This document shows positions 2,700 through 43,271 of a stretch of DNA of 64,000 nt, in pieces. The notes under the pieces are model-generated. The model searched no databases and was not told the origin of the DNA. It saw only the letters and a list, made by a program, of their open reading frames with translations. Source of the stretch: Candidatus Omnitrophota bacterium (GTDB lineage Bacteria; Omnitrophota; Gorgyraeia; JACQQV01); the NCBI GenBank assembly GCA_016206785.1, contig JACQQV010000012.1:9176-73175 (forward strand). The letters run 5' to 3'. The position numbers and the translations under genes are program-made. Each line of letters starts with the position of its first letter. Position 1 is the stretch's first letter.

Positions 2700-4430
2700 T
2701 TAGTTTATCAGATGGAGCCTCTTCCCGTCCATCCCCTTTTGCCAAATCTTCAGAAACAGACCAAACAGGATGATGCCAGCAATACTCATCCAGAAACCGA
2801 GAAGGGGCCTCCCGAGAAGAAGATAGCCGGGTCCCAGCAAGCAGAGAAGAAAAGATGTTGTCACAACACACCAGGAGCCGATCCCTTGGAAAAGTTCCTG
2901 AAATGCCACACTTTTGCCTTCCGCAACCTTTCCCCAGAAAAGGGCGGGAGGTTTTACTTTCTCAAAAAACTCTTTTTGTCTTTGGAGGGAAGTGGGCGGC
3001 GTTAAAAAAGTGATGATGAGCGCAATTAAAAGAGACAGACTACAAGTTATGAGAAATCTGGTATCAAAGGCAAGTTTTGTCTGAGTTTCCAAAACGATGG
3101 CAATGACGAAAGAACTTGCCATGGTCCCCATCTCCGTATAAGCATTTACCCGCCACCAGATCCAGCGTAAAACGCGGACCGTCCCGAGCCCCGCCGTCAT
3201 CGCAAAGAGAAACTGCCAGACGCCCGCGATGGATTCCATCTGAAGCGCCAGCAAAAGCGCTGTCACGCCGAGGATAAGTTCTGTCACCTTTGCGGCCAGC
3301 ACATAATGTGTTGGACTTTCCCGGGGCCGTAAGAAACGGGCGTAGACATCGTGAATCAGATAACTTGTTCCCCAGTTGAGATGCGTGTCAATCGTGCTCA
3401 TGAAGGCGGCGACCATCGCTGTCACAAGGAGTCCCAGCATGCCTGCGGGAAGGACCTCTGTCATCATCTTGGGATACGCCATCTCCGGATCTTCCAGGCC
3501 AGGAAAAGTCACGGCTGCAACAAGTGCCGTCAGGATCCAGGGCCAGGTCCTCAAGACATAGTTCGCAAAGACAAACCAGAGGGTTCCTCGGTAGGCGTCC
3601 TTCTCTGACTTTGCCGCAAGCATCCGCTGCGAAAGGTAGCCGCCCCCTTCGATTTCCAATTTGTTCCACCACATGATGAGCACATAGGTGAAAAAAGCGG
3701 CCCAGGGAAGGGAAGGTCCCAGCGCATTTGCCGTCGGAAAAGGGGAAAGCATCGCCTCGGCACCCTGCGGACCAAAGTTCAGCTTAAGTTTCTCAAGAAG
3801 TCCCCCCAATCCCCCGACAGATTGGACAGACGCCCAGGCCAGGAAATACGAGCCTATCATCGCCATTGCAAATTGAAATAGATCCGTCATCACAACCCCC
3901 CAGAGACCTGAAAGAAGGGTGTATAGGATGACAAAAGAAAGAGAGAGGCTCATTGAAAAAAGAGGCTCCCATCCTAAAAGGACCTTGAGGATCTTTCCCA
4001 TCGCAAGGAGAACCCATCCCATCGTCATACAGTTGAGAAGAAGTCCGTGGTAGAGCGCTAAAAATCCCCTCAGGATACTTGCCTCTTTTCCGCTGTAACG
4101 AAGTTCGATGAGTTCTATATCCGTAAGAAGTTTAGCGCGCCGCCAAAGGGGGGCAAAGAGAACGGCAGAGGTAACCCCGGCAAACATCGCGGACCACCAG
4201 AGCCAGTTTCCGCTCACGCCATGTGTGAGGGTCAGTCCTGTGACGGCTAAGGGGGTATCGGCCGCAAAGGTTGTCGCGGCCATGCTCGTTCCCAAGATCC
4301 ACCAGGGGAGGGATCGGCCGGAGAGGAAATAGTGTTGGGGACTTAAGGAGGCCCGTTTTCGAAGGAGAAACGAGACACCGAGGGAAAGCAAAAGATAGGA
4401 AGCAAGGATAGTCCAATCAATAACATGCAT
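2700..4430 (-). CDS. sodium:solute symporter (SSF) family transporter
   Basis: A 576-aa polytopic membrane protein with an SSF-like N-terminus and overall pattern (GRSLPWWILGTSMAATTFAADTPLAVTG ... MSTIDTHLNW). Confidence 0.7.
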   Translation of the reverse strand: MHVIDWTILASYLLLSLGVSFLLRKRASLSPQHYFLSGRSLPWWILGTSMAATTFAADTPLAVTGLTLTHGVSGNWLWWSAMFAGVTSAVLFAPLWRRAKLLTDIELIELRYSGKEASILRGFLALYHGLLLNCMTMGWVLLAMGKILKVLLGWEPLFSMSLSLSFVILYTLLSGLWGVVMTDLFQFAMAMIGSYFLAWASVQSVGGLGGLLEKLKLNFGPQGAEAMLSPFPTANALGPSLPWAAFFTYVLIMWWNKLEIEGGGYLSQRMLAAKSEKDAYRGTLWFVFANYVLRTWPWILTALVAAVTFPGLEDPEMAYPKMMTEVLPAGMLGLLVTAMVAAFMSTIDTHLNWGTSYLIHDVYARFLRPRESPTHYVLAAKVTELILGVTALLLALQMESIAGVWQFLFAMTAGLGTVRVLRWIWWRVNAYTEMGTMASSFVIAIVLETQTKLAFDTRFLITCSLSLLIALIITFLTPPTSLQRQKEFFEKVKPPALFWGKVAEGKSVAFQELFQGIGSWCVVTTSFLLCLLGPGYLLLGRPLLGFWMSIAGIILFGLFLKIWQKGMDGKRLHLIN

Positions 4431-8384: not shown

Positions 8385-8433
8385 TTGTGGCATAAAACCA
8401 AAAACCGCCACCTGAGTTAAACTCAGATGGCGG
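8385..8433 (-). terminator. rho-independent terminator (copy 1 of a repeated hairpin element)
   Basis: Stem ccgccacctgagtt/aactcagatggcgg (8405-8433) is followed on the minus strand by tttttggtttta. Confidence 0.5.
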
Positions 8434-8678
8434 CCCGACCATCTAGAATACCTCCCCAGAAAAATACCTGGAGACCCAATTTTTTGCTATCTACTATTTA
8501 AGTTACAGAACTAGTATAAAGGAAATCCGGCTTAAATGCAAGAAAAATATGGCGGAGGAACTGGGATTCTCTAGGGTGGATAAAAACCTCACCCAGAAGC
8601 TGCCTAAAGACCCAACGATGCGTCTCTTCTAAGTGAGGAGGTGTTGGGTCGACGAAGCCTCTGGGTGAGTCGAGTGTT

Positions 8679-11241: not shown

Positions 11242-12663
11242 TTAATCCTCTTGGATATGGACCTCCTTTCTGATACCCAGTTTGTTTATTTTATCTTTTA
11301 ACGTGGGGCGGCTAATTCCTAACAGTTTCGCCGCTTGGGTTTGGTTACCCTGCATCTTCTTCAGCACCTCAATGAGTAAGATTTTCTCGGTCTCTTCAAC
11401 AACGTTTGCATATAGTGAACCTTTCTTAGCGTCAACCTGTTGTCTAACCATTTGACGTAACGCGCTCTGGAACTGGCGCGGCGGTTCCTCTTGTCTGGTA
11501 CGATCTTCTTTCTCAATCGAGACACACTCTGGGAGAAGGGTGCTTCCCTTGCCAAGAAGGATCGCCCTTTTGATGACGTTTTCCAGTTCTCTCACATTCC
11601 CCGGCCAATCATACATCTGTAACGTCTGAAGCGCCTCAGGAGAAATCCTGCGTATCTCCTTCCCAAACTCCCTGTTGTATTTGACCAAGAAGTATTCTAC
11701 AAGCTGAGGGATGTCTTCCTTACGATCCCGTAGCGGCGGAATCATAATCGTCATGGCATTGAGTCTGTAGTATAAGTCTTCTCTGAACTTATTTTCTTTG
11801 ATAAGTGCCTCCAAATCTCTATTGGTCGCGGCAATTAGCCGGACATCGGCCCGAATGGAATTATTCCCGCCTAACCTTTCAAAAGATTTGTCTTCCAAGA
11901 TGCGCAAAACCTTTGCCTGGGTTGCATGGGACATATCCCCAATTTCATCCAAAAAGATTGTGCCACCATGGCACTGCTCCAGTCTCCCGATCCTGCGCTC
12001 TTTCGCATCGGTGAAGGCACCCTTTTCATATCCAAAGAGTTCGCTTTCTAAAAGGGAATCCGGGATCGCTGCTGAATTAATGATCAAAAAGGACTTATCT
12101 TTCCGTTTGGAGTGGTGATAGATCGCCCGGGCGATGAGTTCCTTGCCTGTTCCACTTTCGCCCCTTAAAAGGACAGTGACATCGCTTGCGGTAACACTGC
12201 CAACCAGCTTATACACCTGTTGCATGTTGAAGGAGGATCCGACGATCCTGTCCCCTTTGAAGGGTTCCTTGGGCTCATAGGTAACCTCTGTCCTCATGAT
12301 TCTTCCTACCTCAAGGGCCTCTTCAATTGTCTTTTTAATCTCACGGACATCAAATGGCTTGATCACATAGTCATAGGCACCCAGTCTCATCGCTTCAATC
12401 GCGGTCTCCGTTGTCCCAAAAGCAGTCATCAAAATAACCGGTATTTTATAGTCGATCTCTTTCAGTTTTGTAAATGCGTCCAACCCTGTCATCCCAGGCA
12501 TCCGGATATCCATAATGGTAAGGTCAATCGTCTGGCTTTTAGCGATAGAAAGTGCCTCTTGTGCATGATTGGCGGTAAGAACTTGATATCCGTCTTGTGC
12601 GAGGATCTTCTTGAAGGAAGAAAGCATATTTTTCTCGTCATCGACAACAAGGATTCTATTCAT
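11242..12663 (-). CDS. sigma-54-dependent Fis-family response regulator (NtrC/AtoC/ZraR type)
   Basis: A REC domain (ILVVDDEKNM...DLTIMDIRMPGMTGLD), an AAA+ sigma-54 activator domain (GESGTGKELIARAIH, GAFTDA, ESELFGYEKGAFTDA) and a C-terminal Fis-type HTH (AAKLLGISRPTLKDKINKLGI). Confidence 0.9.
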   Translation of the reverse strand: MNRILVVDDEKNMLSSFKKILAQDGYQVLTANHAQEALSIAKSQTIDLTIMDIRMPGMTGLDAFTKLKEIDYKIPVILMTAFGTTETAIEAMRLGAYDYVIKPFDVREIKKTIEEALEVGRIMRTEVTYEPKEPFKGDRIVGSSFNMQQVYKLVGSVTASDVTVLLRGESGTGKELIARAIYHHSKRKDKSFLIINSAAIPDSLLESELFGYEKGAFTDAKERRIGRLEQCHGGTIFLDEIGDMSHATQAKVLRILEDKSFERLGGNNSIRADVRLIAATNRDLEALIKENKFREDLYYRLNAMTIMIPPLRDRKEDIPQLVEYFLVKYNREFGKEIRRISPEALQTLQMYDWPGNVRELENVIKRAILLGKGSTLLPECVSIEKEDRTRQEEPPRQFQSALRQMVRQQVDAKKGSLYANVVEETEKILLIEVLKKMQGNQTQAAKLLGISRPTLKDKINKLGIRKEVHIQED

Positions 12664-14154: not shown

Positions 14155-14198
14155 TTTTCCCTATTAAAAAGCCGCCATCTGACAGAGTCAGATGGCGG
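14155..14198 (-). terminator. rho-independent terminator (copy 2 of the repeated hairpin element)
   Basis: Perfect stem ccgccatctga/tcagatggcgg (14172-14198) followed on the minus strand by ctttttaatag. Confidence 0.5.
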
Positions 14199-14339
14199 CC
14201 CGACCATCTCGGTCTCCTCCAGAGGCGGAAAATCCGTCTCCGGACCCTTTGATCAATTATCTATTCCAAGATACCACTCTTCTTGAGAAATCGCAAAGAA
14301 AAATTTCAAAGGATATTACGGCAGAACTGGAGAGATGCC

Positions 14340-27737: not shown

Positions 27738-28289
27738 TTATGCCGTGATCACGGCACTAACGGGGACATCCCGCAAGGAGGTAGGAAGTTTTATGACTCT
27801 CTGAAATCGAAATGCGAGTCCGATGAGAGGAATCCGCCCTTTGAAGCGCTTCAGAAACCGGTCGTAGTAGCCGCCGCCGCGGCCGAGGCGGTTTCCCTTC
27901 GCGTCAAACGCGATCCCCGGCACGACGACCAGATCAATCTCTCGAGAGGAGACAAGGCGCCTTCTCCCCGACCGCGGTTCCAGAATGCCAAAGCGTTGAG
28001 GAGAAAGATCCTTTTTGAAATCAAGAACTTCGGCCGGCCTTATCCTTCTTCCCTCAAGGCTCGGCACGACGACCCGTTTCCCAAGCCGGAGGGCCAACCG
28101 GATCATGCGATACGTGTCAACCTCCTCGGGAAGCGACACATAAAACATGACCGTGTGGGAGCGCCGGAATTCTCTTCTCTGAAAGAGCTTCTTTTCAATG
28201 GTGCGACTTTTTTGGAGCCGCGCTTTACGACTCTGCTTCTTCAAACGCTCAAGGAGTGAGCAACGGATTTCTGATTTAAGGGACCGCAT
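27738..28289 (-). CDS. 5-formyltetrahydrofolate cyclo-ligase
   Basis: MTHFS motifs are present ([26 protein letters not shown]). Confidence 0.8.
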
Positions 28290-28741
28290 TAAATGTGAAA
28301 GGTGTAGCGATGTTCCATGAGTTCATCGAGGCCTAACCGCTTCACCTCTTCACACAGTTCCTTCAAGGAGGTTGCCTCTAAAACTTCCTTCATCCTTTGG
28401 GCAAGTTTCCCCCACACCAGATTCACGATCGGGTGAAGTCCATTTTTGCCATTCTGGATCTTCCCATCGTAAAGGGATTCAAGCCCATTTTCCAAGGTCC
28501 TCACAATCTCCCCGATCGTGATCGCCTCAGGCGGTTTCGCCAACCGGTATCCTCCCTTCGGCCCCCGCTCCGCCCCCACGAGTCCTTTTTTCTTAAGGCG
28601 ATTCAAGATCTGCTCAAGATAAGGAAGCGAGATCTTCTCTTTCTCAGCGATACTCGAGACAGAAATGGGGCCTTGCGGATACCGGAGGGCAAGCGCATAC
28701 ATCGCCAAAAGGCCGTAAGTCGATCGGGCTGAGAGTTTCAT
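28289..28741 (-). CDS. Rrf2-family transcriptional regulator (no Fe-S-ligand cysteine cluster)
   Basis: Rrf2 wHTH (ARSTYGLLAMYALAL...ISVSSIAEKEKISLPYLEQILNRLKKKGLVGAERGPKGGYRLAK). The cysteine cluster of IscR-type members is absent. Confidence 0.75.
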   Translation of the reverse strand: MKLSARSTYGLLAMYALALRYPQGPISVSSIAEKEKISLPYLEQILNRLKKKGLVGAERGPKGGYRLAKPPEAITIGEIVRTLENGLESLYDGKIQNGKNGLHPIVNLVWGKLAQRMKEVLEATSLKELCEEVKRLGLDELMEHRYTFHI

Positions 28742-28868
28742 CGCGAAAATGAGTGTAGCAAATTCCTACTATTTTTGTCAAGAATAAATTCCCTGCCTGC
28801 CGCCTGCCTGTCGGCAGACAGGGCAGGCAGGATACTTGTTAATCGACACAATATGTTGTTTTTGTCTC

Positions 28869-28897
28869 TTGTCTTAAGACCCCTTGTAAGGTATACT
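28869..28897 (+). promoter_or_regulatory. candidate sigma-70 promoter for the 1,598-aa ORF
   Basis: TTGTCT-N17-TATACT lies ~70 nt upstream of the ATG at 28968 in an AT-rich divergent region. Confidence 0.35.
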
Positions 28898-28967
28898 TTT
28901 ATGTTAAATTAGGTAAAAAGTAAGGACTATTTTTTATGCCCTGTAAGTTACATATTGGCAATAAGTT

Positions 28968-31900
28968 ATGAGAAGAGTCACTTCATTCCTCACCATTGAG
29001 TTCTTCCTTATATGTAGCCTCGGCGCTGATCCCGCTATAGCGCAATCTTCTTTCCCTCCCCAGGGCGGGCGAACCGGCCAACCCGTAAACAGGTTAACCC
29101 TTTCAGTCCAGACACACCTTCGACCCCCCTCCGGAATAGCCTCTTCCAAAGAAATTCAATCCGCTCTGGACGGGGGCGAAAAAAAGACCCCTCCCTCTTA
29201 CAGGCGAAGGACCGATGAGGAGGTAAAAATCGCGTATCTTTTTACACGCTTCGATACCCTGCATGGAGAAATCGACCGCGTCACCACACTCCTCACCCGT
29301 CTCAAAGGGAAAGTGACGGAGGAAGAAGAAGGAAGGATGCAACTTGAGTTTACCCGCCTCCTTGAAACGCTTAAAGCCCTTTCCAAGGAACTGCCCCCAA
29401 TGGATACTCTCCCAAAAGAGTTTACGGCCCTACAGGCAAAGAATAAGGAACTTGCAAAAGAAAGCCGGGCCCTCCGTCAAGAAATTTTGAAAGCGCATGA
29501 GAGAAAAGAGGACGATCGCCTCACGCAACTCAATACGGAGATCACGCAAAAACTGTGGCTTCGCTCCTGGATAGAACTGGAACTTGCTTATTCCTTCTTC
29601 ACCGATAAAAAGAACCCCACCGCTGCCCTCGCGCTTTTGATCGGCGTACGAAACAGAATGGCTGACCTCCAGACAGAATATTGGTGGCGCCGTGTCCGTA
29701 AGGTGATCGGCCAAAAGATTACCCACGAGATGCTAGAGGATTGGTTCAAAATCCCCGTAGAGGTCACTTATGTCGGTGATTACGACATCAAACTCTCAGA
29801 GAAGGGGGAGGTAACAATCTACAGAAGACATTGGAGAAAGCGAACTATCCCGACGGCCGGTGGGGAAATGGTTTCAGTGAATGAGCCTGAGGTTACCGCC
29901 TTCAAATTCCAAGATATGCCCACAGCGCTCCGGAGCGAAATTCATATTGTCATGAGTCAGGGAGAAGCCTATCGGGGGGTGTTACACGCCTTAAGTAATC
30001 TACAACATCTCCTTCTCCGGATGAAACAACAGAAGGAAAAAAGGGAGGCGATGCCTAAGAAGGAACTCCAGGCGGCCTTAGAGATCACCTACACGTGGGC
30101 CCATCGAGGGATTGCAAGTGATTTAAGAAGACGGGCCCTCCCGGACCTGGAAAACGGAGCGGCATATCTTGAGAAAGAATTGTACGAGGATGCGATGGCG
30201 GCGCTCGAGAGGGCAAAACAGAAGTTGCGTCACGCTCTCAAACGACAGGAAACAACGGGTGAGAGAACACGCGCCAGGGCTCTTGTCTTCCTCAATGAAT
30301 GGCGTTTTCTCCTTGAAAACCGGGAAAGACTCGTCGCCGGAGTCAAGGAGGCACTAGAACACGCTCATCCAAAAAATCCACTCGAATTCATACGTCGACT
30401 TGAAACCCTCAGGCAAGGGGTCTTCCGCACAAAACCGAGACTTTTAGCGCTTCAAGAGGTCTACAACCGTTTCAACCAGACGTTTGTCCTCCTTAGAAGA
30501 GCCTCGGAACTCTTAGCAAAAAAGGAAAGGGCGCCGAAAGAAGAAAGGCAGATCTATTCGCTCTCCAATGCTGCGAAAAAGAACCTAAGACTCATGCTAG
30601 GGGATCTTGAAAGGGATCAGAATAGAAAAACAGCCCGTGACGGGGCGGAGCAGAAGGAGGTATCCCCAGAAGTCCTTGCGTTCCAGGAGACCCTTGAAAT
30701 AGAATTCGCAGCACTTCTTGAAAAATGGGAGAAGGATGATGTGGAAAATCTTCCGGAGCATCTTGAAGAATGGGAGGCCTGGCTGGGCATCCAGAAGGAA
30801 AGATTCATCCGTTGGGGAAGGGGAAAGGTCATACCCCACTCCCCGCAGGCAGTGGCACTCCAACCACTCGTGGAGAAGTTCCTGGAACTGACCGATCGAG
30901 CCAAAACTCTTTTTGAAGCCCATCTTCTGGATGTGAAGGATATTGTTGGCCTTTCCTACATTCAGGCCGGAAATTTCTACCACTTCCTCCTGGAAGAGAC
31001 CGACCGCGCGGTCGAACTCTACGCCAAGGCCCCGGAAGAGCTCCGTCAGGACTATTTCGCAAGAGATGTCTTTTACGGGATCCGCCGCGCCTATGAAGCG
31101 CAGAAGGCCCGCGATGGCGGAAGGCGCGTTCCTCTTCCGGAATTCATGGCCGCTTATGAACGACTTTCACAAAGTGGAAAACCGCCCGATACCAAAATGC
31201 TTTCTGAAGCTCTGGGGATGTCGGCAAGCGCGGTAAGGCAACGGACAAACCGCCTCGGATTGAAACGATCCGGCGTACCGGTAAGCAACAAGGAATTCCA
31301 AAAAGCGTACCGCCTTTTGACAAAAGAGCTGAAACGGCCGCCTACCAAAGAAGAAATCGCTTCACATCTTGTCGACATTACTCCGGATGCAGCGAGAGAC
31401 CGGGCGCGGCATCGGGGTCTCAGACTTTCCAACCATAAAACAACGGAGATCGAATTCCGGAGTGCCTACCGACGCCTTCAACGCCGGCTCAAGAGAGCCC
31501 CGAACGCAGAGGAGATTGCCAAATTTCTTGTTCGGGGATCTGAAAAGCATATCCGGCACCGCAGTCATGTACTTGGCCTTGAATTGACTTCCATGCCCCT
31601 CGCCAGCCCTCTTTCGCGCTACCGAGATGGCCTCACCGACGAAGTTCCTCCGGACCACATTGCGCAACTGCGGCGAGCTTCGCGCGGCGCTCTTGCTCTT
31701 TCCCTTGCTGACGCCGAACTCGAAGGCTTCCCAGCATCCCTCGGAGAAGTGGGAAGTAAGGTCGTTGTTCATTTTGAACGGGTCAGAGGGAAGACGCGGG
31801 ATCTCATCGTCACTTTTAGACCGGTCCTCTCAGACGAAACGACAGAACCGCCGCATGCGATGCGTCGCCTTATCATCCGCGACGGAAGGATAAGGGTGGA

Positions 31901-33764
31901 GAAAAATCTCAACGGTCCGAATGCACTCCATGACCTCCGGCGGCTTCGGGCAAGGGGGATCAACTTTGATGCTCTTCCCCAATATGTCCGGAGAAACAGC
32001 CCTTCGGATGCCCTTTTAAAAGTGATGCTTTTTGAACAAAGGGGGTTTCTTCCGCTTTGGAGCTGGTTCCAATATTCGCCTACAACGATTCAAAAGCGCC
32101 TGAATGCCATCAGGCCGAACACATTACAGCGACTGTTGAATGCTGCAGAAAGAAAAGAAGAAGAACTCTCACAAAGAAGTACCGCGTTCAATGACAACAT
32201 TCCTTCTCTCTTTAAAGAGGGGGAGACCCCAGCCCAACTTGAGAAGATCGCCCTGCACGTTCCCTCCAAGAAGGATCCAAGACGGATCCTCAGGGAGTTC
32301 GAGCGCTTAGAAACCGCCTCCCTCGGAACGCACCTGATGCACCAAAGAAGAGGAATGCTCATTCCTTATAAGCAGATTCTCCGGGAACTGCCGGGGTTAT
32401 ATCTTATCGATTCTGAGCCCCTGCTCAAACGGGCCCTGGGAATTCTAGGGCACTATGGTTTTATTCTTTTGTATCAGAATGGCGGTGTGATGGTCCTTGA
32501 CACCCCTTTCCCAGCGAATACAGGGAATTATCCCTCTGCTTCCGCCCGCGACGGGGCCGATCGGCAAGCGGATGTACTCACCCGCCAACTCGAAGAAAAA
32601 TTTGGCCAGGGTCTTGAGAGAGGGGATGAAACAGTTATTCAAGATATCGTTACCTATCGCGACTCACTTCCACCAAGCACACCCACACGACAACTCCTTT
32701 ACGAGTGGCTACAACATCATGAATCGGCACTCGCTGCAAAGGCGATCGCAGCCATGGGACTCAATTGGCCAGGGGTTGTGTCGAAACTCCTTGATGTCAT
32801 CGAAGGAAAACGGGATGGAAACCCCCACGCAGCAGCACGACAACTTGATGAACTCGTAAGTGAAGGAAGGTATGGGGGACTCGTGGCACCCTTAGAAGTG
32901 ATTGAAGAAGCGAAAGATGTGTGGCACCGCCATTCAGGATTCTCAAAGCTTCTTGCACCTATCAAATTTCCCTCCTTTCCAACTCCTCTTTCTGAAAAAC
33001 CGGGTGTCCTTGTCCTTGTGCGTCACGGCGAAACCACCTGGAGTGAAGCGGTCCTCAATAAATGGGCTGGATGGCACGACGCGAAGGTGACTGAGAAAGG
33101 GCGAAAAGAGGCTTATGAAGCGGGAGAAAGAATCAAGGTAGAAGGCCTTCATTTCGATCAAGCCTACTCTTCAGACTTGTCGCGTGCGGAACAAACTCTC
33201 CTCCAAGCCCTTGCGGCGGTCGGACAAACCGACATACCGATTGTCCACGATAAGACCCTCCGTGAACGGAATTATGGAGATATGATCGGTTGGAACCGGA
33301 AGGATGTAGAAAGGATATTCGGACAAGATGTGTTAAAACGATGGCGACGCGGCTATTCTGGAAATGCCATCCGTCCGCCGGGCGGCGAAAATCTCGCGGA
33401 TGTGCAAGAGCGAACAGTCCCTTTCTTAGTTGAGCACATCCTTCGTGATGTGGCTGAAGGGAAAAATGTCATTGTCTCCGCACATGGAAACAGTCTCCGC
33501 TCTATCCTTGTGTCTCTTCGAGAACAAACAGAAGGTCGCAAGCTCAGTGAAGAGGAAATTCTGTCCCTCGAGGTTCCTCTCTCAACACCAATTGTCATCA
33601 CGTTCGCCGCGGAGTGGTACCATCAAGAACTTTGGGTTGATCAAGAGAAAAGAGCTGAGGACGTTTTGGGCTTCTTAACCTCCACCCGCGACGGGGCCGA
33701 GCGGCAGGTGCGTCCCCTCCTCCGAGAAATTCCTCGTTTGGAACCAGCCCTCCTCAGCCCCTAA
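28968..33764 (+). CDS. large orphan multidomain protein: signal-peptide-like N-terminus, ~700-aa region of unknown fold with coiled-coil-like stretches, three tandem sigma-70-region-3-like HTH repeats, C-terminal GpmA-like histidine phosphatase (dPGM-type) domain
   Basis: An uninterrupted 1,598-codon ORF. The N-terminus is MRRVTSFLTIEFFLICSLGADPAIA-QSS. Most of the protein has no match to any family I can name, with K/E/R-rich coiled-coil-like stretches in places. Three ~48-aa repeats (AYrrLxxxLkRpPtxEEIAxxL...LGL) resemble RpoD region 3. The C-terminal ~210 aa align with GpmA (LVRHGETTWSE...GWHD, ERNYGDMIGWN, WRRGY, SAHGNSLRSIL...EEEILSLEVPLSTPIV). Confidence 0.6.
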   Translation: MRRVTSFLTIEFFLICSLGADPAIAQSSFPPQGGRTGQPVNRLTLSVQTHLRPPSGIASSKEIQSALDGGEKKTPPSYRRRTDEEVKIAYLFTRFDTLHGEIDRVTTLLTRLKGKVTEEEEGRMQLEFTRLLETLKALSKELPPMDTLPKEFTALQAKNKELAKESRALRQEILKAHERKEDDRLTQLNTEITQKLWLRSWIELELAYSFFTDKKNPTAALALLIGVRNRMADLQTEYWWRRVRKVIGQKITHEMLEDWFKIPVEVTYVGDYDIKLSEKGEVTIYRRHWRKRTIPTAGGEMVSVNEPEVTAFKFQDMPTALRSEIHIVMSQGEAYRGVLHALSNLQHLLLRMKQQKEKREAMPKKELQAALEITYTWAHRGIASDLRRRALPDLENGAAYLEKELYEDAMAALERAKQKLRHALKRQETTGERTRARALVFLNEWRFLLENRERLVAGVKEALEHAHPKNPLEFIRRLETLRQGVFRTKPRLLALQEVYNRFNQTFVLLRRASELLAKKERAPKEERQIYSLSNAAKKNLRLMLGDLERDQNRKTARDGAEQKEVSPEVLAFQETLEIEFAALLEKWEKDDVENLPEHLEEWEAWLGIQKERFIRWGRGKVIPHSPQAVALQPLVEKFLELTDRAKTLFEAHLLDVKDIVGLSYIQAGNFYHFLLEETDRAVELYAKAPEELRQDYFARDVFYGIRRAYEAQKARDGGRRVPLPEFMAAYERLSQSGKPPDTKMLSEALGMSASAVRQRTNRLGLKRSGVPVSNKEFQKAYRLLTKELKRPPTKEEIASHLVDITPDAARDRARHRGLRLSNHKTTEIEFRSAYRRLQRRLKRAPNAEEIAKFLVRGSEKHIRHRSHVLGLELTSMPLASPLSRYRDGLTDEVPPDHIAQLRRASRGALALSLADAELEGFPASLGEVGSKVVVHFERVRGKTRDLIVTFRPVLSDETTEPPHAMRRLIIRDGRIRVEKNLNGPNALHDLRRLRARGINFDALPQYVRRNSPSDALLKVMLFEQRGFLPLWSWFQYSPTTIQKRLNAIRPNTLQRLLNAAERKEEELSQRSTAFNDNIPSLFKEGETPAQLEKIALHVPSKKDPRRILREFERLETASLGTHLMHQRRGMLIPYKQILRELPGLYLIDSEPLLKRALGILGHYGFILLYQNGGVMVLDTPFPANTGNYPSASARDGADRQADVLTRQLEEKFGQGLERGDETVIQDIVTYRDSLPPSTPTRQLLYEWLQHHESALAAKAIAAMGLNWPGVVSKLLDVIEGKRDGNPHAAARQLDELVSEGRYGGLVAPLEVIEEAKDVWHRHSGFSKLLAPIKFPSFPTPLSEKPGVLVLVRHGETTWSEAVLNKWAGWHDAKVTEKGRKEAYEAGERIKVEGLHFDQAYSSDLSRAEQTLLQALAAVGQTDIPIVHDKTLRERNYGDMIGWNRKDVERIFGQDVLKRWRRGYSGNAIRPPGGENLADVQERTVPFLVEHILRDVAEGKNVIVSAHGNSLRSILVSLREQTEGRKLSEEEILSLEVPLSTPIVITFAAEWYHQELWVDQEKRAEDVLGFLTSTRDGAERQVRPLLREIPRLEPALLSP

Positions 33765-33842
33765 TTTCTGGGTGACTTGCTTCCCCGTTTCCGTTTTGCT
33801 ATAGTAGGGTTACAGAACCCCACGAAAGGAGGGTAACTTATT

Positions 33843-34469
33843 ATGCCTGACCTCTATAGTAACGTACATCTTATCATCCGGTGGTTGCATGTCCTGGCGG
33901 GGATTGTCTGGATCGGGCACCTCTACTTTTTTAATTTCGTGAATGTACCCCTTCAGGGCACCTTGGATGATGCCACCAAGAAGTCGGTCAATCCGCAGTT
34001 ACTCCCGAGGGCCCTTTGGTGGTTTCGGTGGGGGGCTATGGTGACACTTTTGGCGGGGTTGATCCTCTTTGTGATGAATTACTTCTATGTAGGAGACGGC
34101 CGTTTCGGACCGACAAGCCTCCTTATCGACCCCTTGCTCGGACGGATCACGCACCGCGCGATGTGGATCTTCTTTGGGATGATCTTGGGGATTATTATGT
34201 GGTTTAATGTCTGGTTCGTCATCTGGCCGGCACAGAAAGCACTTCTTACAGGGAAGGTTCCCGCGGACAAGGCACCGGCTGTCCGCAAGCGGGCACTCCT
34301 TTTTTCAAGAACCAATACCTATCTCTCAGGACCGATGCTCTTCGGAATGCTCGCTCCGGCCCACTACGGGGCCATGAGTTTCCCTTCTTTGCTTTTAGCA
34401 ATTCTACTCGGGGTGATCGCTATCTGGGCGAGTATTCGATCTTCCGGTAAGGTGGGTAAACTAAAATAA
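33843..34469 (+). CDS. polytopic membrane protein, PuuD N-terminal (PF06181)-like / HemJ-CopD-like
   Basis: Motif VHLIIRWLHVLAGIVWIGHLYFFNFVNVP at the N-terminus with 4-5 predicted TM helices, and an AAGGAGG Shine-Dalgarno. The family assignment is tentative. Confidence 0.45.
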   Translation: MPDLYSNVHLIIRWLHVLAGIVWIGHLYFFNFVNVPLQGTLDDATKKSVNPQLLPRALWWFRWGAMVTLLAGLILFVMNYFYVGDGRFGPTSLLIDPLLGRITHRAMWIFFGMILGIIMWFNVWFVIWPAQKALLTGKVPADKAPAVRKRALLFSRTNTYLSGPMLFGMLAPAHYGAMSFPSLLLAILLGVIAIWASIRSSGKVGKLK

Positions 34470-34510
34470 GACCTAAGACTAAAGACACAAGACTCAGAGT
34501 CTTAGGTCTT
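34468..34510. terminator. nested palindromic hairpins between convergent genes (possible bidirectional terminator)
   Basis: aagacctaagact (34468-34480) pairs with agtcttaggtctt (34498-34510), with an inner aagactc/gagtctt hairpin. The structure overlaps both stop codons. Flanking T-tracts are weak. Confidence 0.4.
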
Positions 34511-35029
34511 GAGTCTTGAGCCTCTCAATGCGTTCACAATTGTCTCGCCGAAGGCCTTTGCCGACTGGGGTCCGTCTCCGGTAATAATCCGGCCGTCGAC
34601 CTCTACCGGCTTTCCTGTGAAAATCGCTCCTCCCTGTTTTAAGAGTTCGCTCTCCTCTGAGAAACTGGTCGCCCGTTTCCCTTTAAGAAGCCCGGTTTTG
34701 GCAAGCGTCCCGGGCGCTGCGCAGATCGCTCCGATAATCCGCTCGCCGGTTTCCGCCTCGCGCACGAGCCTGTGTGCCTCAGGGTCGTTGAAATAGGCCC
34801 TTGAACCTTGCCCGCCGATAAAAACAATGGCATCAAAATCTGTGGCATGCACTTCTTTGAGAAGTGAGTCCACCTCTACCTCAAGGCCGAATTTCCCGAC
34901 CGCCTTTCCAGAGCGTGAAGAGACCACCGTTACCACAATTCCGGCCTGTTCAAAAATTTTCCGCGGTTCCGTATATTCCTCGTCCCGGAACTGCTCTGGG
35001 GCAATCACCATCAGAATCCGTTTACTCAT
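34502..35029 (-). CDS. DJ-1/PfpI family protein
   Basis: Nucleophile-elbow motif (IGAICAAPGTLA) on a DJ-1/PfpI scaffold (ILMVIAPEQFRDEEY...AIVFIGGQG). Confidence 0.85.
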   Translation of the reverse strand: MSKRILMVIAPEQFRDEEYTEPRKIFEQAGIVVTVVSSRSGKAVGKFGLEVEVDSLLKEVHATDFDAIVFIGGQGSRAYFNDPEAHRLVREAETGERIIGAICAAPGTLAKTGLLKGKRATSFSEESELLKQGGAIFTGKPVEVDGRIITGDGPQSAKAFGETIVNALRGSRLKT

Positions 35030-37921: not shown

Positions 37922-38227
37922 TTAGGAAGAGACCCTTCTTTTAAGAAGCGTTTCGATTTTTTGAATCCGTCGGCGCAGAATCCCCTTCCGTCCCTTTGGA
38001 TCATCGACCTTGATGGTCGTCACGACGCGGGCCGATGCTCTGAGGAGAAGACGATGGCAGCGCTCAATGAGCGCAAAAATTTCTTTCCATTCCCCTTCCA
38101 CGATCGTCCCCATCTCCGTCACTTTGTAAGGAAGGCCGCTTTGATCCACAAGGTCAATGGCCTTGGCCACCTGCTTGGAAATGCTTACTCCCTTCCCGAT
38201 AGGGAGAACGCTAAATTCGACAATCAC
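37922..38227 (-). CDS. MTH1187/YkoF family (thiamine-binding-like) protein
   Basis: IVEFSVLPIGKGVSISKQVAKAIDLVDQSGLPYKVTEMGTIVEGEW matches the UPF0045/YkoF pattern. Confidence 0.65.
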   Translation of the reverse strand: MIVEFSVLPIGKGVSISKQVAKAIDLVDQSGLPYKVTEMGTIVEGEWKEIFALIERCHRLLLRASARVVTTIKVDDPKGRKGILRRRIQKIETLLKRRVSS

Positions 38228-39414
38228 GAGAATTCTCCTTTTAAAAATTTACCCATTAAGGTGAACCCTTCAGAAACCCAAAGTTTGGAGTGGGATGCCT
38301 CTTCTTCGGTATATGTTTTAAAACCATTTCCCTTCACCCCAGTTCCAAAAAGGGTAAAGGGAACAGGATCGTGGGTGTGGGTCCGGATTACTGTTGAAGT
38401 CATATGATCTGGTAAAAGTAAAAGTCGAAACTCCTTCATTTTTAAAAGACCTTCAAGAAGCGTCCCAACCAGGAGGTTATCGAAATCTTCAATCGCTTCC
38501 ACTTTAAGTTTCACATCCCCCATATGCCCTGCTTCATCAGTGGACTCTACATGAATAAAAAGAAAATCTTTTTTCTTGAGTGCTTCCAGGCCATACTGGG
38601 CTTTTGCCTTATAGTCCGTATCAAAATAACCGGTCGCCCCGGGGACCTGAATCACTTCAAGCCCCACACTTCGTCCCACCCCACGGACGAGATCGACTGC
38701 GCTAATGACCGAACCATCCAATCCGTACTGAGAGTTAAAACTGGGAAGGACCGGCCGGGTTCCCTGCCCCCAAAGCCAGATACTCGTCGCTGGATCTTTT
38801 CCCTCTTTTTTCCTTTTTTGATTTACCGGATGGTCAGAAAGAATTTTCTGAGATTCCTCCATGAGCTCTCGGAGTTCTTTTTCCCCTTCTCCCTTCGGGA
38901 AATAGGGCTCCACCTCTTTGCCAGCGATGTCATGAGGGGGAGTACATTTCACCTTTCCATAACGGCGCGACACAAGGAGGTGACGGTATTGGACTCCGGC
39001 ATAAAACTGAAACCCGTCTCCGCCCAACTTTTCCTGAAGCGTTGCGATAATTGCCTTCGCTTCTTCACTTGAGATATGCCCGGCGCTATAATCCTTCATT
39101 TTCCCTTTTTCAAGGGTGATGAGATTACAGCGGAAGACGACTTCCTCTTTTGAAAGGGAAATGCCGAGACTTGCCGCTTCAAGAGGGGCGCGACCGGTGT
39201 AATAGCGACGGGGATCATACCCCAAAAGGCTCATGCAGGCCACATCACTCCCCGACGGAAGTTCCTTTGGAACCGTCTGAACTTGTCCCAAGAGTCCCTT
39301 TTGGACGATCGTATCAAGGTTCTGCCTCTTGGCCGCCTCGAGGGGCGTTTTGTTTCCTAATTCGGGGATTGGTTTATCGGCGACACCGTCCGGAACGACA
39401 AGAATATATTTCAC
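38224..39414 (-). CDS. apgM: cofactor-independent phosphoglycerate mutase, archaeal type
   Basis: MKYILVVPDGVADKPIPELGNKTPLEAAKRQNLD...GSDVACMSLLGYDP is the ApgM-type N-terminus. Length 396 aa. Confidence 0.8.
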   Translation of the reverse strand: MKYILVVPDGVADKPIPELGNKTPLEAAKRQNLDTIVQKGLLGQVQTVPKELPSGSDVACMSLLGYDPRRYYTGRAPLEAASLGISLSKEEVVFRCNLITLEKGKMKDYSAGHISSEEAKAIIATLQEKLGGDGFQFYAGVQYRHLLVSRRYGKVKCTPPHDIAGKEVEPYFPKGEGEKELRELMEESQKILSDHPVNQKRKKEGKDPATSIWLWGQGTRPVLPSFNSQYGLDGSVISAVDLVRGVGRSVGLEVIQVPGATGYFDTDYKAKAQYGLEALKKKDFLFIHVESTDEAGHMGDVKLKVEAIEDFDNLLVGTLLEGLLKMKEFRLLLLPDHMTSTVIRTHTHDPVPFTLFGTGVKGNGFKTYTEEEASHSKLWVSEGFTLMGKFLKGEFS

Positions 39415-40795: not shown

Positions 40796-42145
40796 TTAAT
40801 AGGAAGGGGCGAAGGGGAGGTTGACGGAGACCAGCCGGTCGAAGAGAGAGCCCCGCTTGCTTCCGCGGCCCAGTTCCATGTCAGAGACAAGGACCCGGAA
40901 CGTCTTCACCCCTTTTTCCCTGAGGAGGGTCTTGCGGCGGTAGCCGGCGGTTGAATGAAGGACATACTGGCGGTTATCCCGTTTTCCGAGATAGAGCATG
41001 AGGTGGTTATCGAGTTTCACAAAAGTCGTTGCCGGAATCGCTTGATTAAGCGCTTGTTGTTTCCCCTCTTTTTTTGCATCTTTTGAAAAGGTGGCAAGGA
41101 TTTTCCCGATCCTGGACTGGGGCCCTGAATTCCTGGGAAGTTCCACGCCCATCGTGGCAAAGACGTCTCGTAAAAAACTAGAACAGTCCCACCCCCCTTG
41201 GAGTCCTCCCCATCCGTAAGGGGCGCCGTGAAGTTTGAAGGCCTGCGTCAAAATCTGGCGCGACGTTAAGGGAAGAAAATCGGTCTGGACAGTCTTCTTC
41301 CGGAGAAAGGCGTGGGTCAAAAGAACTCTGCCGTCCGGTCTTCGCTCGGGGCGGTGAATCAGAAAGAAATCCCCGTCCTCCAGAAGGAGATCGGTATGCA
41401 ACACCGTTCCCATTTTCCAAGAGGTCACCGGCTCTCCGTCGCGGTTTTCAAATACCGGGACCTCCCGCTCGGTCACGACAATTTTTGGAAAGGAAAGATG
41501 CTTGAAAAGGGCCTCTTTGTTTTCGAAAAAGGCGACCGATTCCTTCTTCGCCCACCCTCGAAGAAGTTTTGAGGCGAGATAAAGCCATTTTCCATCCTGG
41601 CTCTCCCACAAAAGTGCAACCGGCGTCCCTGGAGAGAGAGTGGTCTGCTGAAGAAGATCGAAGGCAACGTCTCCCCGCTTTTCCACAACCGGTTCTGTTG
41701 TCGGAAACGTGCGTACAGAACATTCCTCAATGATGAGACCAAACCGAACCGGGAGAAGATCGGGGAGATTTCGAAGCGCGCACAAGGACTTTAGATTATT
41801 CAAAAAAGGTTTCCGTACAAGATGCCCACGATGGTCATATAATTTCTTTTGTAATAAAGCGGCCTCTTCCTTCTCAAGGGCTGCGAGGAGAAAAGAGGTG
41901 CCTACCCTTTCTTCAAGAGCCAGGGGATCCACCGCTGTTGGCTCTGCGCGAAGAAATTTTTGATTAAGGGTTTCGATCTGGCGGAGACTTAAAATGACCC
42001 TATCGGCCTCAGAAAGTTGTGTGACCCAATAGTCTGCATGTTCCATCTCCGGCAGAACGTGTGGAATTTTCTGAGCGGCATGGACACACGTCGGAAGAGC
42101 GCAAAAAAAGCAAAGACTCAAGAGGAGAGTGATTTTCTTTCTCAT
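40796..42145 (-). CDS. NlpC/P60 (C40) family secreted peptidase with N-terminal SH3-like region
   Basis: Signal peptide (LLLSLCFFCALPTCVHA). The C-terminus has the catalytic Cys context GAPYGWGGLQGGWDCSSFLRDVF. Confidence 0.7.
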   Translation of the reverse strand: MRKKITLLLSLCFFCALPTCVHAAQKIPHVLPEMEHADYWVTQLSEADRVILSLRQIETLNQKFLRAEPTAVDPLALEERVGTSFLLAALEKEEAALLQKKLYDHRGHLVRKPFLNNLKSLCALRNLPDLLPVRFGLIIEECSVRTFPTTEPVVEKRGDVAFDLLQQTTLSPGTPVALLWESQDGKWLYLASKLLRGWAKKESVAFFENKEALFKHLSFPKIVVTEREVPVFENRDGEPVTSWKMGTVLHTDLLLEDGDFFLIHRPERRPDGRVLLTHAFLRKKTVQTDFLPLTSRQILTQAFKLHGAPYGWGGLQGGWDCSSFLRDVFATMGVELPRNSGPQSRIGKILATFSKDAKKEGKQQALNQAIPATTFVKLDNHLMLYLGKRDNRQYVLHSTAGYRRKTLLREKGVKTFRVLVSDMELGRGSKRGSLFDRLVSVNLPFAPSY

Positions 42146-42176
42146 GAGGATCGTTTTATTATATCATGGGAATAAG

Positions 42177-43271
42177 ATGCGAGAGATTTTTAAGTATATT
42201 CCGATCCCCTTTTGGTGTTACGTCCTTCCGATGATAGGGCGCACCTTTGGCCTCCTCCCCGACGAGACCGTCTTCTATGAAAAAGGGGTTGCGCTTCTTC
42301 TCCCCGGCGCCCTGATCCTTCTTCTCCTCTCCACACAACTCACCTCCCTATTCAAGATAGGGAACTTGTCTCTTTTGACGATGATCGTCGGTTCCTTAGG
42401 GATTGTCGTCGGTGGTCCACTCAGTCTCCGCTGCTTTCGTTTCCTCTTACCAGAAGATGCCTGGATGGGGTTTGGCACATTGGCAGGAAGTTGGATCGGG
42501 GGAAGTATCAATATGGCGGCTTTGAAGGAAGCGATCGGAACGCCGAGTCATCTCTTTTCTCCGATGGTCTTTGTCGATTCCATGATCGCCTACGGCTGGA
42601 TGGCGTTCCTTCTTTCACTGGCACCCTATCAAACGGCCTTTGACCGCTGGAATCGCTCGAAACGCAGTTTCCTGGATGAAACGGATGAAAAACTTAAAAT
42701 GCTTTCTCCAAAAAAAGAGGGTGTTTCCCTTAAAACGCCGGGGCATCTCCTCGTTCTTTTCGGAGTGGCTGCGGCGGGAACGCTCCTTACTTTTTCTCTT
42801 TCAAAACTCATCCCACCGATGGGAACATTTTTAACCCAAAAGACGATTTTTGTCCTTCTGGCAACGGCTCTTGCGATGGGTCTTTCCTTCACTCCGCTTT
42901 CCCGTCTGGAAGAATGGGGAGCGAGTCGACTCGGGACTCTTTTTCTTTACCTCATGCTCATCGCGATGGGCTCGCAGGCCGATTTAAAAGGGCTTGCCCA
43001 CTTTCCGATCTTTGTCCTCGTCGGTTTAGTGTGGGTCATGATTCACGGCGTGATTCTTTTTGCTTTTGGGAAGGTGTTTAGGATTCCTCTTTTTTTCCTG
43101 GCGACGGCGAGTCAGGCGAATATCGGCGGGGTTGTCTCAGCGCCGATCGTCGCCGCCTGTTATGAGAAACGCCTTGCGCCCCTCGGCCTTCTCCTTGCCA
43201 TCTTCGGAAACCTCACCGGGACCTTCCTCGGCCTCCTTTCGGCCCACCTCATGCGGCTTGTAACAAGCTAA
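42177..43271 (+). CDS. DUF819-like polytopic membrane protein
   Basis: ~10 predicted TM helices. Start set at MREIFKYIP, which avoids overlap with the divergent NlpC/P60 start. The family call is tentative. Confidence 0.5.
   Translation: MREIFKYIPIPFWCYVLPMIGRTFGLLPDETVFYEKGVALLLPGALILLLLSTQLTSLFKIGNLSLLTMIVGSLGIVVGGPLSLRCFRFLLPEDAWMGFGTLAGSWIGGSINMAALKEAIGTPSHLFSPMVFVDSMIAYGWMAFLLSLAPYQTAFDRWNRSKRSFLDETDEKLKMLSPKKEGVSLKTPGHLLVLFGVAAAGTLLTFSLSKLIPPMGTFLTQKTIFVLLATALAMGLSFTPLSRLEEWGASRLGTLFLYLMLIAMGSQADLKGLAHFPIFVLVGLVWVMIHGVILFAFGKVFRIPLFFLATASQANIGGVVSAPIVAACYEKRLAPLGLLLAIFGNLTGTFLGLLSAHLMRLVTS

Follow-up and report, generated by a model that had tools for sequence, protein, structure and literature searches.

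In the 64,000-nucleotide stretch of Candidatus Omnitrophota contig JACQQV010000012.1 analysed here (the window), an open reading frame (ORF) at 28968–33764 on the plus strand encodes a mosaic protein of 1,598 amino acids (aa). The gene represents one of the alleles found at a hypervariable locus of a Candidatus Omnitrophota lineage and is built as a recombining mosaic, the units of which are delimited by a short peptide motif. The protein is identical to nr/GenBank entry MBI4436245.1, encoded on a 78-kb contig of an Omnitrophota metagenome-assembled genome (MAG), where it goes by the name of a 2,3-bisphosphoglycerate-dependent phosphoglycerate mutase (dPGM, “GpmA”). This label is misleading: the domain from which it was taken, a dPGM-like domain at the C-terminus, makes up ~13% of the chain. 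The original prediction, made from the DNA alone, had treated the protein as an orphan, but it is present in nr and has four syntenic relatives.

The relatives are four metagenomic loci. Where the contigs reach, RNase Y, 5-FTHF cyclo-ligase and Rrf2, encoded on the minus strand, precede the plus-strand variable gene, which is followed by DJ-1/PfpI, DUF2203 and, farther on, apgM. The five alleles have only a leader and a tail in common. The leader consists of a signal-like segment, an xLRPxS motif, ~10 aa and the sequence SALDGG, while related tails of ~20 aa with the pattern R..P(L/F)L..(I/L)....P.(L/I).(S/N)P-COOH close all five proteins. In the window, the leader is followed by an “N-domain”, a 158-aa unit, three helix-turn-helix (HTH)-like repeats joined to an X domain (HTH+X), a Y domain joined to the dPGM-like domain (Y+dPGM) and the tail. 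The sister allele (loci L021/L001, protein P0002) has the N-domain, a unit with Trypsin_2, a guanylate kinase and an unassigned 206-aa unit between leader and tail. In L024 (P0004), these ends enclose an unassigned 203-aa unit and the N-domain, and in L025 (P0003, the true start of which lies upstream), 19 aa and the N-domain. The protein of L022 (P0024) lacks the N-domain altogether and carries a long HTH+X, a further X and 5 aa. The two contigs of the sister allele, L001 and L021, are independent JGI contigs that break at the same point inside the leader-coding region (position 1), which may reflect strain heterogeneity or an upstream repeat.

Nucleotide comparison with the sister locus (L001/L021, blastn) shows how sharply these units are bounded. 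Similarity extends over 29149–30651 of the window, halts inside the delimiter TARDGAE and restarts at 33770, just past the stop codon. Synonymous divergence (dS) between the window and L021 is 0.35 in the N-domain and 0.72 in the adjacent Urate_ox_N gene, beside flanks that are saturated (DJ-1 undefined, apgM 3.3). The low dS of these two segments next to saturated flanks points to recent lateral exchange of modules into a conserved locus. Taken together with the window tail, which agrees with that of L024 and not with that of L021, this contrast indicates that the locus is a mosaic built by recent exchange of motif-bounded cassettes. A foreign composition of the modules was looked for and not seen, the GC content being 0.50–0.54 across all modules of the ORF.

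In two of the five alleles, a gene for a retropepsin-like aspartyl protease (DSGA motif; 86% identity between the two) comes directly after the variable gene. It lies on the minus strand at 4300–4704 of L021, and at 11665–12066 and 12038–12244, also on the minus strand, of L024, where the coordinates include a DUF5678 gene. As the window has no homologue, the retropepsin-like/DUF5678 pair looks like a small mobile two-gene cassette.

The unusual size and domain mix of the protein, with a public name drawn from its last 13% only, might be taken as signs of an assembly chimera, of separate genes joined by a frameshift or of a decaying pseudogene. The ORF is uninterrupted, however, starting with an ATG that has a stop codon one codon 5′ of it and running for 1,598 codons without an internal stop at 51% GC. 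All five loci hold intact ORFs, of 580–1,598 aa, that have their ends in common. The Logan assembly SRR12113385, which is independent, matches 6,144 nucleotides that include the whole ORF at 99.98% and yields the same ORF. The conserved part of the mosaic gene has a ratio of nonsynonymous to synonymous divergence (dN/dS) of 0.09–0.24, compared with 0.06–0.12 in neighbouring genes. The adjacent RNase Y is ~60% identical to the RNase Y proteins of Omnitrophota MAGs. With the Logan match, the identical nr protein and this dN/dS, the chance of an artefact is next to negligible, and the single, unsplit ORF of the original prediction holds.

What bounds the modules is a peptide motif. In the five proteins, the extended consensus [ST]-A-x-D-G-[AG]-x-[RK] (the delimiter) is found at every module junction. 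Its core, D-G-[AG], was counted 21 times, where composition predicts 1.84 and 5,000 shuffles gave at most 8; for the longer form A-x-D-G-[AG], the count is 17 and the expectation 0.14. All but one of the 21 D-G-[AG] occurrences coincide exactly with a homology-block border, and between genomes the alignment of the N-domain spans residues 2–490 of its 490, independent of the modules next to it. In both AlphaFold2 (AF2) models, those of the N-domain and of module 3, the delimiter-bearing ends are the disordered parts, with a predicted local distance difference test (pLDDT) score below 50. Several synonymous codons are used at each position of the motif, so the constraint is on the peptide and not on the DNA. 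For the same reason, a DNA-level recombination site is disfavoured as the cause of the motif.

The motif-bounded units are complete proteins that have been gained, lost, duplicated and exchanged between genomes. Module 4 of the window (Y+dPGM) is 60% identical, over 92% coverage, to P0025, the product of a free-standing 376-aa Y+dPGM gene in another MAG (L026, 2560–3690), where this gene comes after a P-II gene and is preceded by a stop codon and a spacer. The start of P0025, M-D-G-S, aligns to R-D-G-A, and its end, ...FLRQNR, falls one residue short of the next D-G-A. This register with the delimiters of module 4 suggests either that P0025 descends from a polyprotein module or that a cut is made just N-terminal to the Asp. 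Similarly, residues 4–198 of the guanylate kinase module of the sister allele align to residues 4–186 of a 208-aa kinase.

This modularity bears on the proposal, made in the original prediction, that the protein is one integrated signalling machine, with sigma-like DNA-binding repeats working in concert with a phosphatase or phosphotransferase of the dPGM type. Both domain types truly reside in one ORF, but a delimiter stands between them and other alleles split them: HTH+X occurs without dPGM in P0024, Y+dPGM occurs alone in P0025, and the sister allele has neither domain. No lineages were found that keep the HTH repeats and the dPGM adjacent in a motif-free unit. Since HTH+X and Y+dPGM occur independently, their pairing is incidental to module shuffling, and a coupled device is very improbable. 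Related alleles keep the leader and the tail and replace the modules wholesale, and the combination of HTH and dPGM is, as far as the aligned alleles tell, a product of this shuffling. If the modules are independent cargo, the apparent paradox of a secreted protein with DNA-binding repeats dissolves. The original prediction was correct in that no described family has this architecture, and the homologues retrieved by database searches retain pieces only.

The explanation that we favour, by a slight inclination when it is taken as a whole, is a mosaic of swappable modules that is cut at its delimiters after Sec export. The chain, made up of a Sec-type signal peptide, the conserved leader, self-contained modules and the ~20-aa tail, would be exported by Sec, and a protease would then cut at the exposed delimiters. 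The modules would be set free after export and work on their own, perhaps in or on the cell of a host or prey; such an action is proposed because a predatory or episymbiotic, host-dependent lifestyle has been proposed for Omnitrophota in the literature. The more specific step, in which the delimiters serve as protease sites and a polyprotein, once exported by Sec, releases its modules, we infer with about even confidence. It is suggested by an eight-residue motif that is conserved at the peptide level and lies in disordered linkers, and by modules that equal whole proteins, P0025 having both its start and its end at the motif. It is also suggested by the presence of a different motif with a like role in another lineage, described below, which is expected if substrate and protease co-evolve.

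Several points weigh against this explanation. Cleavage is predicted from sequences and models, and the signal peptide was called by eye. No protease that recognises the motif was found, and the 64-kb window contains no S8 or S1 protease signature. The retropepsin-like gene was considered as a universal processing protease and rejected, as it lies beside no more than two of the five alleles and the window lacks a homologue. The sample is small: the close family numbers at least five loci from one lineage (the window and the four metagenomic loci), with a second lineage besides, from which the other delimiter type is known in one protein cluster. A phosphoglycerate mutase (PGM) or a guanylate kinase is without an obvious extracellular substrate. 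Finally, the motif could be a mere hinge or recombination junction.

Taken further, that last point leads to an uncleaved multidomain scaffold, either secreted or at the cell surface, in which the delimiter serves as a flexible hinge or as a junction for module recombination. The failure to find a protease is in keeping with a scaffold, and so are the demonstrated exchange of modules and the scar-like tandem or near-tandem delimiters: AADGA-ARDGA in L022, a pair with a 19-aa spacer in L025, and pairs with 20–42-aa spacers in a more distant protein, P0146. However, a plain hinge needs no eight conserved positions with an invariant D-G amid changing surroundings, the synonymous codon variation speaks against a recombination signal at the DNA level, and the modules are complete, free-standing proteins. 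We regard a scaffold as possible but fairly unlikely.

Other ways of separating the modules were also considered. The GG/GA of the motif prompted a comparison with C39 double-glycine leader sites, which found no support, as the internal sites, judged from the motif table, do not have the hydrophobic −4/−7 pattern. Ribosome skipping of the 2A type was rejected because NPGP is absent.

The proposed logic of export and cutting, with lineage-specific delimiters, may also hold for much longer Omnitrophota mosaic proteins. An exhaustive HMMER search with the N-domain gave only 22 representative homologues, several of which are found inside Candidatus Omnitrophota proteins of 4–5 thousand aa (kaa). 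The domains carried along with the N-domain in these proteins include a PfkB kinase; an AAA_12 helicase with ThiS; EamA with PHP and HTH; and GlnD with ACT, Rce1 and VTC. A scan of GTDB species representatives with the N-domain produced no relative, nor did a scan of viral contigs, and tblastn against plasmids returned ordinary gpmA genes only.

One of the long proteins, P0146 (MDD5670519.1), has 3,945 aa, starts with a signal peptide and contains the sequence R-S-E-x-R 12 times, against 0.14 expected. This motif splits P0146 into units of 240–529 aa and short spacers, often being paired 20–42 aa apart, and the units that it bounds include the PfkB kinase and the N-domain. There are weaker hints of delimiters elsewhere: PRGPP in P0010, SSSP[VI] in P0006, P0011 and P0019, and GGID strings in P0026 and P0018. 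At aa 205–225 of P0026, the dPGM module of another lineage is followed by GASSSINTKPGGIDF, and similar SSS...GGID strings are found at aa 1860–1880 and 2770–2790 of P0018. The SSSP[VI] and SSS...GGID strings may be further lineage-specific delimiters.

Cleavage of giant Omnitrophota proteins has previously been proposed from the presence of C39 and S8 peptidase domains, with the cleavage points stated as not known (West-Roberts et al. 2023, bioRxiv 10.1101/2023.11.21.568195). Of the “multi-enzyme” long proteins described in a 2026 preprint (10.64898/2026.06.07.730766), 94% have a signal peptide or transmembrane (TM) helices, and a search of the preprint's text found no “cleav”, “linker” or “polyprotein”. 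A literature search gave nothing relevant on bacterial polyproteins or on GGIDL.

The protein of the window resembles these long mosaic proteins of the same phylum in that housekeeping-type enzyme and regulator domains are joined in one chain behind a signal peptide, and it shares the N-domain with members of 4–5 kaa (those with PfkB, GlnD, VTC, PHP, ThiS and HTH). It differs in being 10–100 times shorter, at 1,598 aa compared with published statistics on proteins of at least 10 kaa, and in having no TM helix beyond the signal peptide. Delimiters, a conserved leader and tail, and allelic replacement of modules are reported in neither of the two studies (10.1101/2023.11.21.568195; 10.64898/2026.06.07.730766).

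Viral polyproteins offer a parallel in which one ORF encodes several complete proteins with a short conserved motif in disordered linkers. Unlike them, the present gene lies on a bacterial chromosome, showed no relative in the scan of viral contigs and has no protease in the window allele, and its cleavage is a prediction. The cyanobactin precursors are multi-cassette peptides with an A-x-D-G motif (AYDG) that is recognised by the subtilisin-like PatG (PMC10043927). Their cassettes are 6–8 residues long, in contrast to the 150–490-aa proteins found here, and the x is a conserved Tyr there and variable here. The likeness is one of motif only; it offers a lead to the kind of protease, although no S8 protease was found in the window.

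A different comparison is with polymorphic toxins. In the MARTX toxins of Vibrio, conserved termini surround strain-variable effector domains that are exchanged by recombination and released by proteolysis. The likeness here, variable modules between conserved ends, is one of organisation only. The glycine-rich repeats of RtxA and the C80 cysteine protease were not found in Pfam scans of the query and P0002, export would go by a Sec-type and not a type I signal, and the modules resemble housekeeping enzymes rather than known effectors. In CdiA (VENN) and Rhs (PxxxxDPxGL) proteins, a short junction motif borders the swapped modules. The Omnitrophota gene shares with these a conserved junction motif at the border of a variable region and a locus that is hypervariable between close relatives. 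It differs in having several delimiters per protein, variable parts that are internal and a conserved tail, and the motif is unlike VENN or DPxGL. Moreover, it has neither a cognate immunity gene nor homology to toxins.

From this comparison, the protein could be a polymorphic effector or toxin like MARTX or CdiA/Rhs, made by a bacterium that is predatory or episymbiotic, in which conserved ends for delivery bear exchangeable effector modules directed at the cytoplasm of prey or host. This reading overlaps our favoured one and adds antagonism to it. It would account for conserved ends around variable modules with a junction motif between them, for exchange between lineages and for a dN/dS that reaches 0.24, above the 0.06–0.12 of the neighbours. 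Enzymes of the cytoplasmic type would make sense only within a cell, and both predation and host dependence have been proposed for the phylum. Yet no module resembles a known toxin, and the PADLOC defence library had no match for the query protein. The downstream genes (Urate_ox_N, DJ-1, or the retropepsin/DUF5678 pair) do not co-vary with the modules, none of them is a module-matched immunity gene, and RTX repeats, CPD, Rhs and haemagglutinin domains were not found by Pfam scans. Antagonism of this kind is unlikely on present evidence. The PHROGs phage library matched the PGM domain only.

The original prediction had listed a signal-like start, a long and in part coiled-coil-like region, three HTH-like repeats and a C-terminal dPGM, and this sequence of parts was confirmed, the long region being helical. 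The first 25 aa (28968–29042) form a Sec-type signal-peptide-like segment, as read by eye from hydrophobicity: an n-region MRR, an h-region FLTIEFFLICSLG and AIA, with the cut before Q. It is the sole strongly hydrophobic stretch in the protein, and matching n-, h- and c-regions with small residues at −3/−1 are seen in four of the five orthologues despite low identity. A type IV pilin-like (class III) signal, F-x-T-[IL]-E, was also tried and rejected, as, of the five proteins, only those of the window and L022 conform to it. The pilin-like appearance of aa 6–12 in the window (28983–29003, S followed by FLTIE) and of the start of the L022 protein (A followed by FFTLE), with F at +1 and E at +5, is probably coincidence.

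The leader (aa 26–70, 29043–29177) contains HLRPPS and the first delimiter, SALDGG (aa 65–70), and is conserved in P0024, P0004 and L025. Distant N-domain proteins, too, have a similar string, ALRP...AL(D/E)(G/S)G, after their signal peptide. Module 1, the N-domain (aa 71–560, 29178–30647), was modelled by AF2 with a pLDDT of 81.6 as helical bundles with a β-sheet insert, and structure comparison gave no informative neighbour. It ends in the delimiter TARDGAEQ (aa 555–562, 30630–30653), in which DNA homology to the sister locus stops. Module 2 (aa 561–718, 30648–31121) is the 158-aa helical unit, bounded by delimiters and with a tetratricopeptide repeat (TPR)-like end; searches of Pfam, the Protein Data Bank (PDB) and sequence databases yielded no match. 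It is followed by the delimiter KARDGGRR (aa 713–720, 31104–31127).

Module 3 starts with the three tandem HTH-like repeats (aa 722–876, 31131–31595), recognised by self-alignment as mutually alignable units of 49–53 aa (aa 722–770, 771–823 and 824–876). They had been likened to sigma-70 region 3. There are indeed three tandem repeats, and Sigma70_r3 (PF04539) reaches 32.5 bits (cutoff 25.3), but only in two short stretches, with matches that cover 28 residues of the 78-position model. A Pfam scan of the protein found no Sigma70_r2 or Sigma70_r4 match even at E ≤ 1, and the protein, judged by these domain matches, is no sigma factor. The segment also has weak HNH_repeat and HTH_AsnC matches. 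AF2 predicts three-helix units with a pLDDT of 70–82, the weak top Foldseek matches of which are sigma factors, Myb and DtxR (E ≥ 0.09). In the models, the repeats look like tandem three-helix units for binding DNA or protein.

The second part of module 3, the X domain (aa 877–1197, 31596–32558), is predicted as a β domain followed by helices and is 41% identical to the two copies in P0024, with no PDB or Pfam match. The AF2 model of module 3 as a whole is of low confidence (pLDDT 65, predicted template modelling score 0.31), and neither Foldseek nor a profile search gave a significant match. The delimiter SARDGADR (aa 1192–1199, 32541–32564) is disordered in the model, with a pLDDT below 50. 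Module 4 then comprises the Y domain (aa 1198–1343, 32559–32996), which is shared with P0025, and the dPGM-like histidine-phosphatase domain (aa 1344–1549, 32997–33614), assigned by family models and PDB alignments. The segment that encodes the Y domain has a GC3 of 0.38, compared with 0.50–0.62 in the other modules. The last delimiter, STRDGAER (aa 1572–1579, 33681–33704), leads into the conserved C-terminal tail ERQVRPLLREIPRLEPALLSP (33699–33761), which is 81% identical to the L024 tail.

Family models detect the branch-1 histidine-phosphatase fold in the C-terminal domain. His_Phos_1 (PF00300) matches aa 1348–1519 with an E-value of 1.9e-31 and 109.7 bits against a cutoff of 21.7, and TIGR01258 gives 157.2 bits against a cutoff of 81.7. 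The best equivalog model, NF002339 (short-form GpmA), scores 189.6 bits, below its cutoff of 316. The closest solved structure is Schizosaccharomyces pombe PGM, 1fzt (211 aa, 1.6e-37). Alignment to 1fzt and 4emb shows RHGE, SRA, RERNYG, WRRGY and AHGNSLR to be present, so that both catalytic histidine motifs (RHG and HGNS) and the Arg/Glu set are kept. The first substrate loop, by contrast, reads TTWSEAVLNKWAGW where the canonical form is WN...NRFTGW, with Ser at the position equivalent to Asn17 and a 2-aa insertion, and the equivalent of Lys100 is Arg. These changes (Asn to Ser with the 2-aa insertion, and Lys to Arg) are shared with P0025 and absent from stand-alone GpmA matches. The domain is therefore like GpmA in its full-length alignment, its catalytic histidine motifs and most of its substrate-binding residues. 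It differs in its setting within a 1,598-aa chain with the 146-aa Y domain on its N-terminal side, its sub-equivalog score and its altered first loop. From these residues, it may act either as a mutase or as a specialised phosphatase.

Upstream of the mosaic gene, and divergent from it as originally described, is an Rrf2-family regulator on the minus strand (28289–28741, Pfam 8e-33), which is found in this position in all orthologous loci with an available upstream flank (L022, L024 and L025). The Rrf2 protein has one Cys only, and the Fe-S ligand triad is not visible in its sequence. The divergent promoter region between the two genes (28742–28967), examined by a consensus scan and a four-locus alignment, is AT-rich, as had been noted, with a GC content of 0.43. 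The plus-strand promoter proposed for the mosaic gene, TTGTCT-N17-TATACT, is present at 28869–28897 and its −10 block is conserved in three orthologous loci, but taken alone it is not above chance in the consensus scan. On the minus strand, TTGACA-N18-TACACT lies at 28781–28752. In the four-locus intergenic alignment, GGTATACTTT and the TTGACA block are invariant. A 40-nucleotide GC-rich imperfect palindrome between the divergent promoters (28791–28831; CCCTGCCTGCCG...CGGCAGACAGGG and CCTGCCTG...CAGGCAGG) is an insertion specific to the window; L022, L024 and L025 lack it, their intergenic regions being otherwise well conserved.

The mosaic gene had been described as the only long plus-strand gene of the region, which does not hold: a Urate_ox_N-like membrane protein (33843–34469, Pfam 3.2e-24) and a genuine DUF819 gene (42129–43271) are also encoded on the plus strand. 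The window, L021 and L024 have the Urate_ox_N gene, and L022 and L025 lack it; from this distribution and its dS, it looks recently exchanged. The conserved right-hand flank of the variable locus is the DJ-1/PfpI gene (34502–35029, minus strand, Pfam 7.5e-40). The separate apgM at 38224–39414 was confirmed. Elsewhere in the window, two matches to the nhaA-I RNA riboswitch (RF03057, gathering score 37) lie upstream of minus-strand genes, at 8425–8477 (minus strand, 52.3 bits) and 14190–14247 (minus strand, 51.4 bits).

Whether and where the enormous mosaic proteins of Omnitrophota are cut is an explicit open question in the literature. The gene described here documents the in-frame exchange of whole proteins, as cassettes, between genomes. 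At 1.6 kaa, it is a tractable miniature, with five natural alleles, modules that match free-standing proteins and a statistically unambiguous motif, which makes the cleavage hypothesis directly testable. That Omnitrophota make true bacterial polyproteins, cut at lineage-specific motifs (A-x-D-G-[AG]-x-R, R-S-E-x-R) and with modules traded as cassettes, is a tentative and somewhat doubtful proposal. If it is true, the delimiters would be the missing cleavage points by which giant proteins of 10–150 kaa can be parsed into their functional products.

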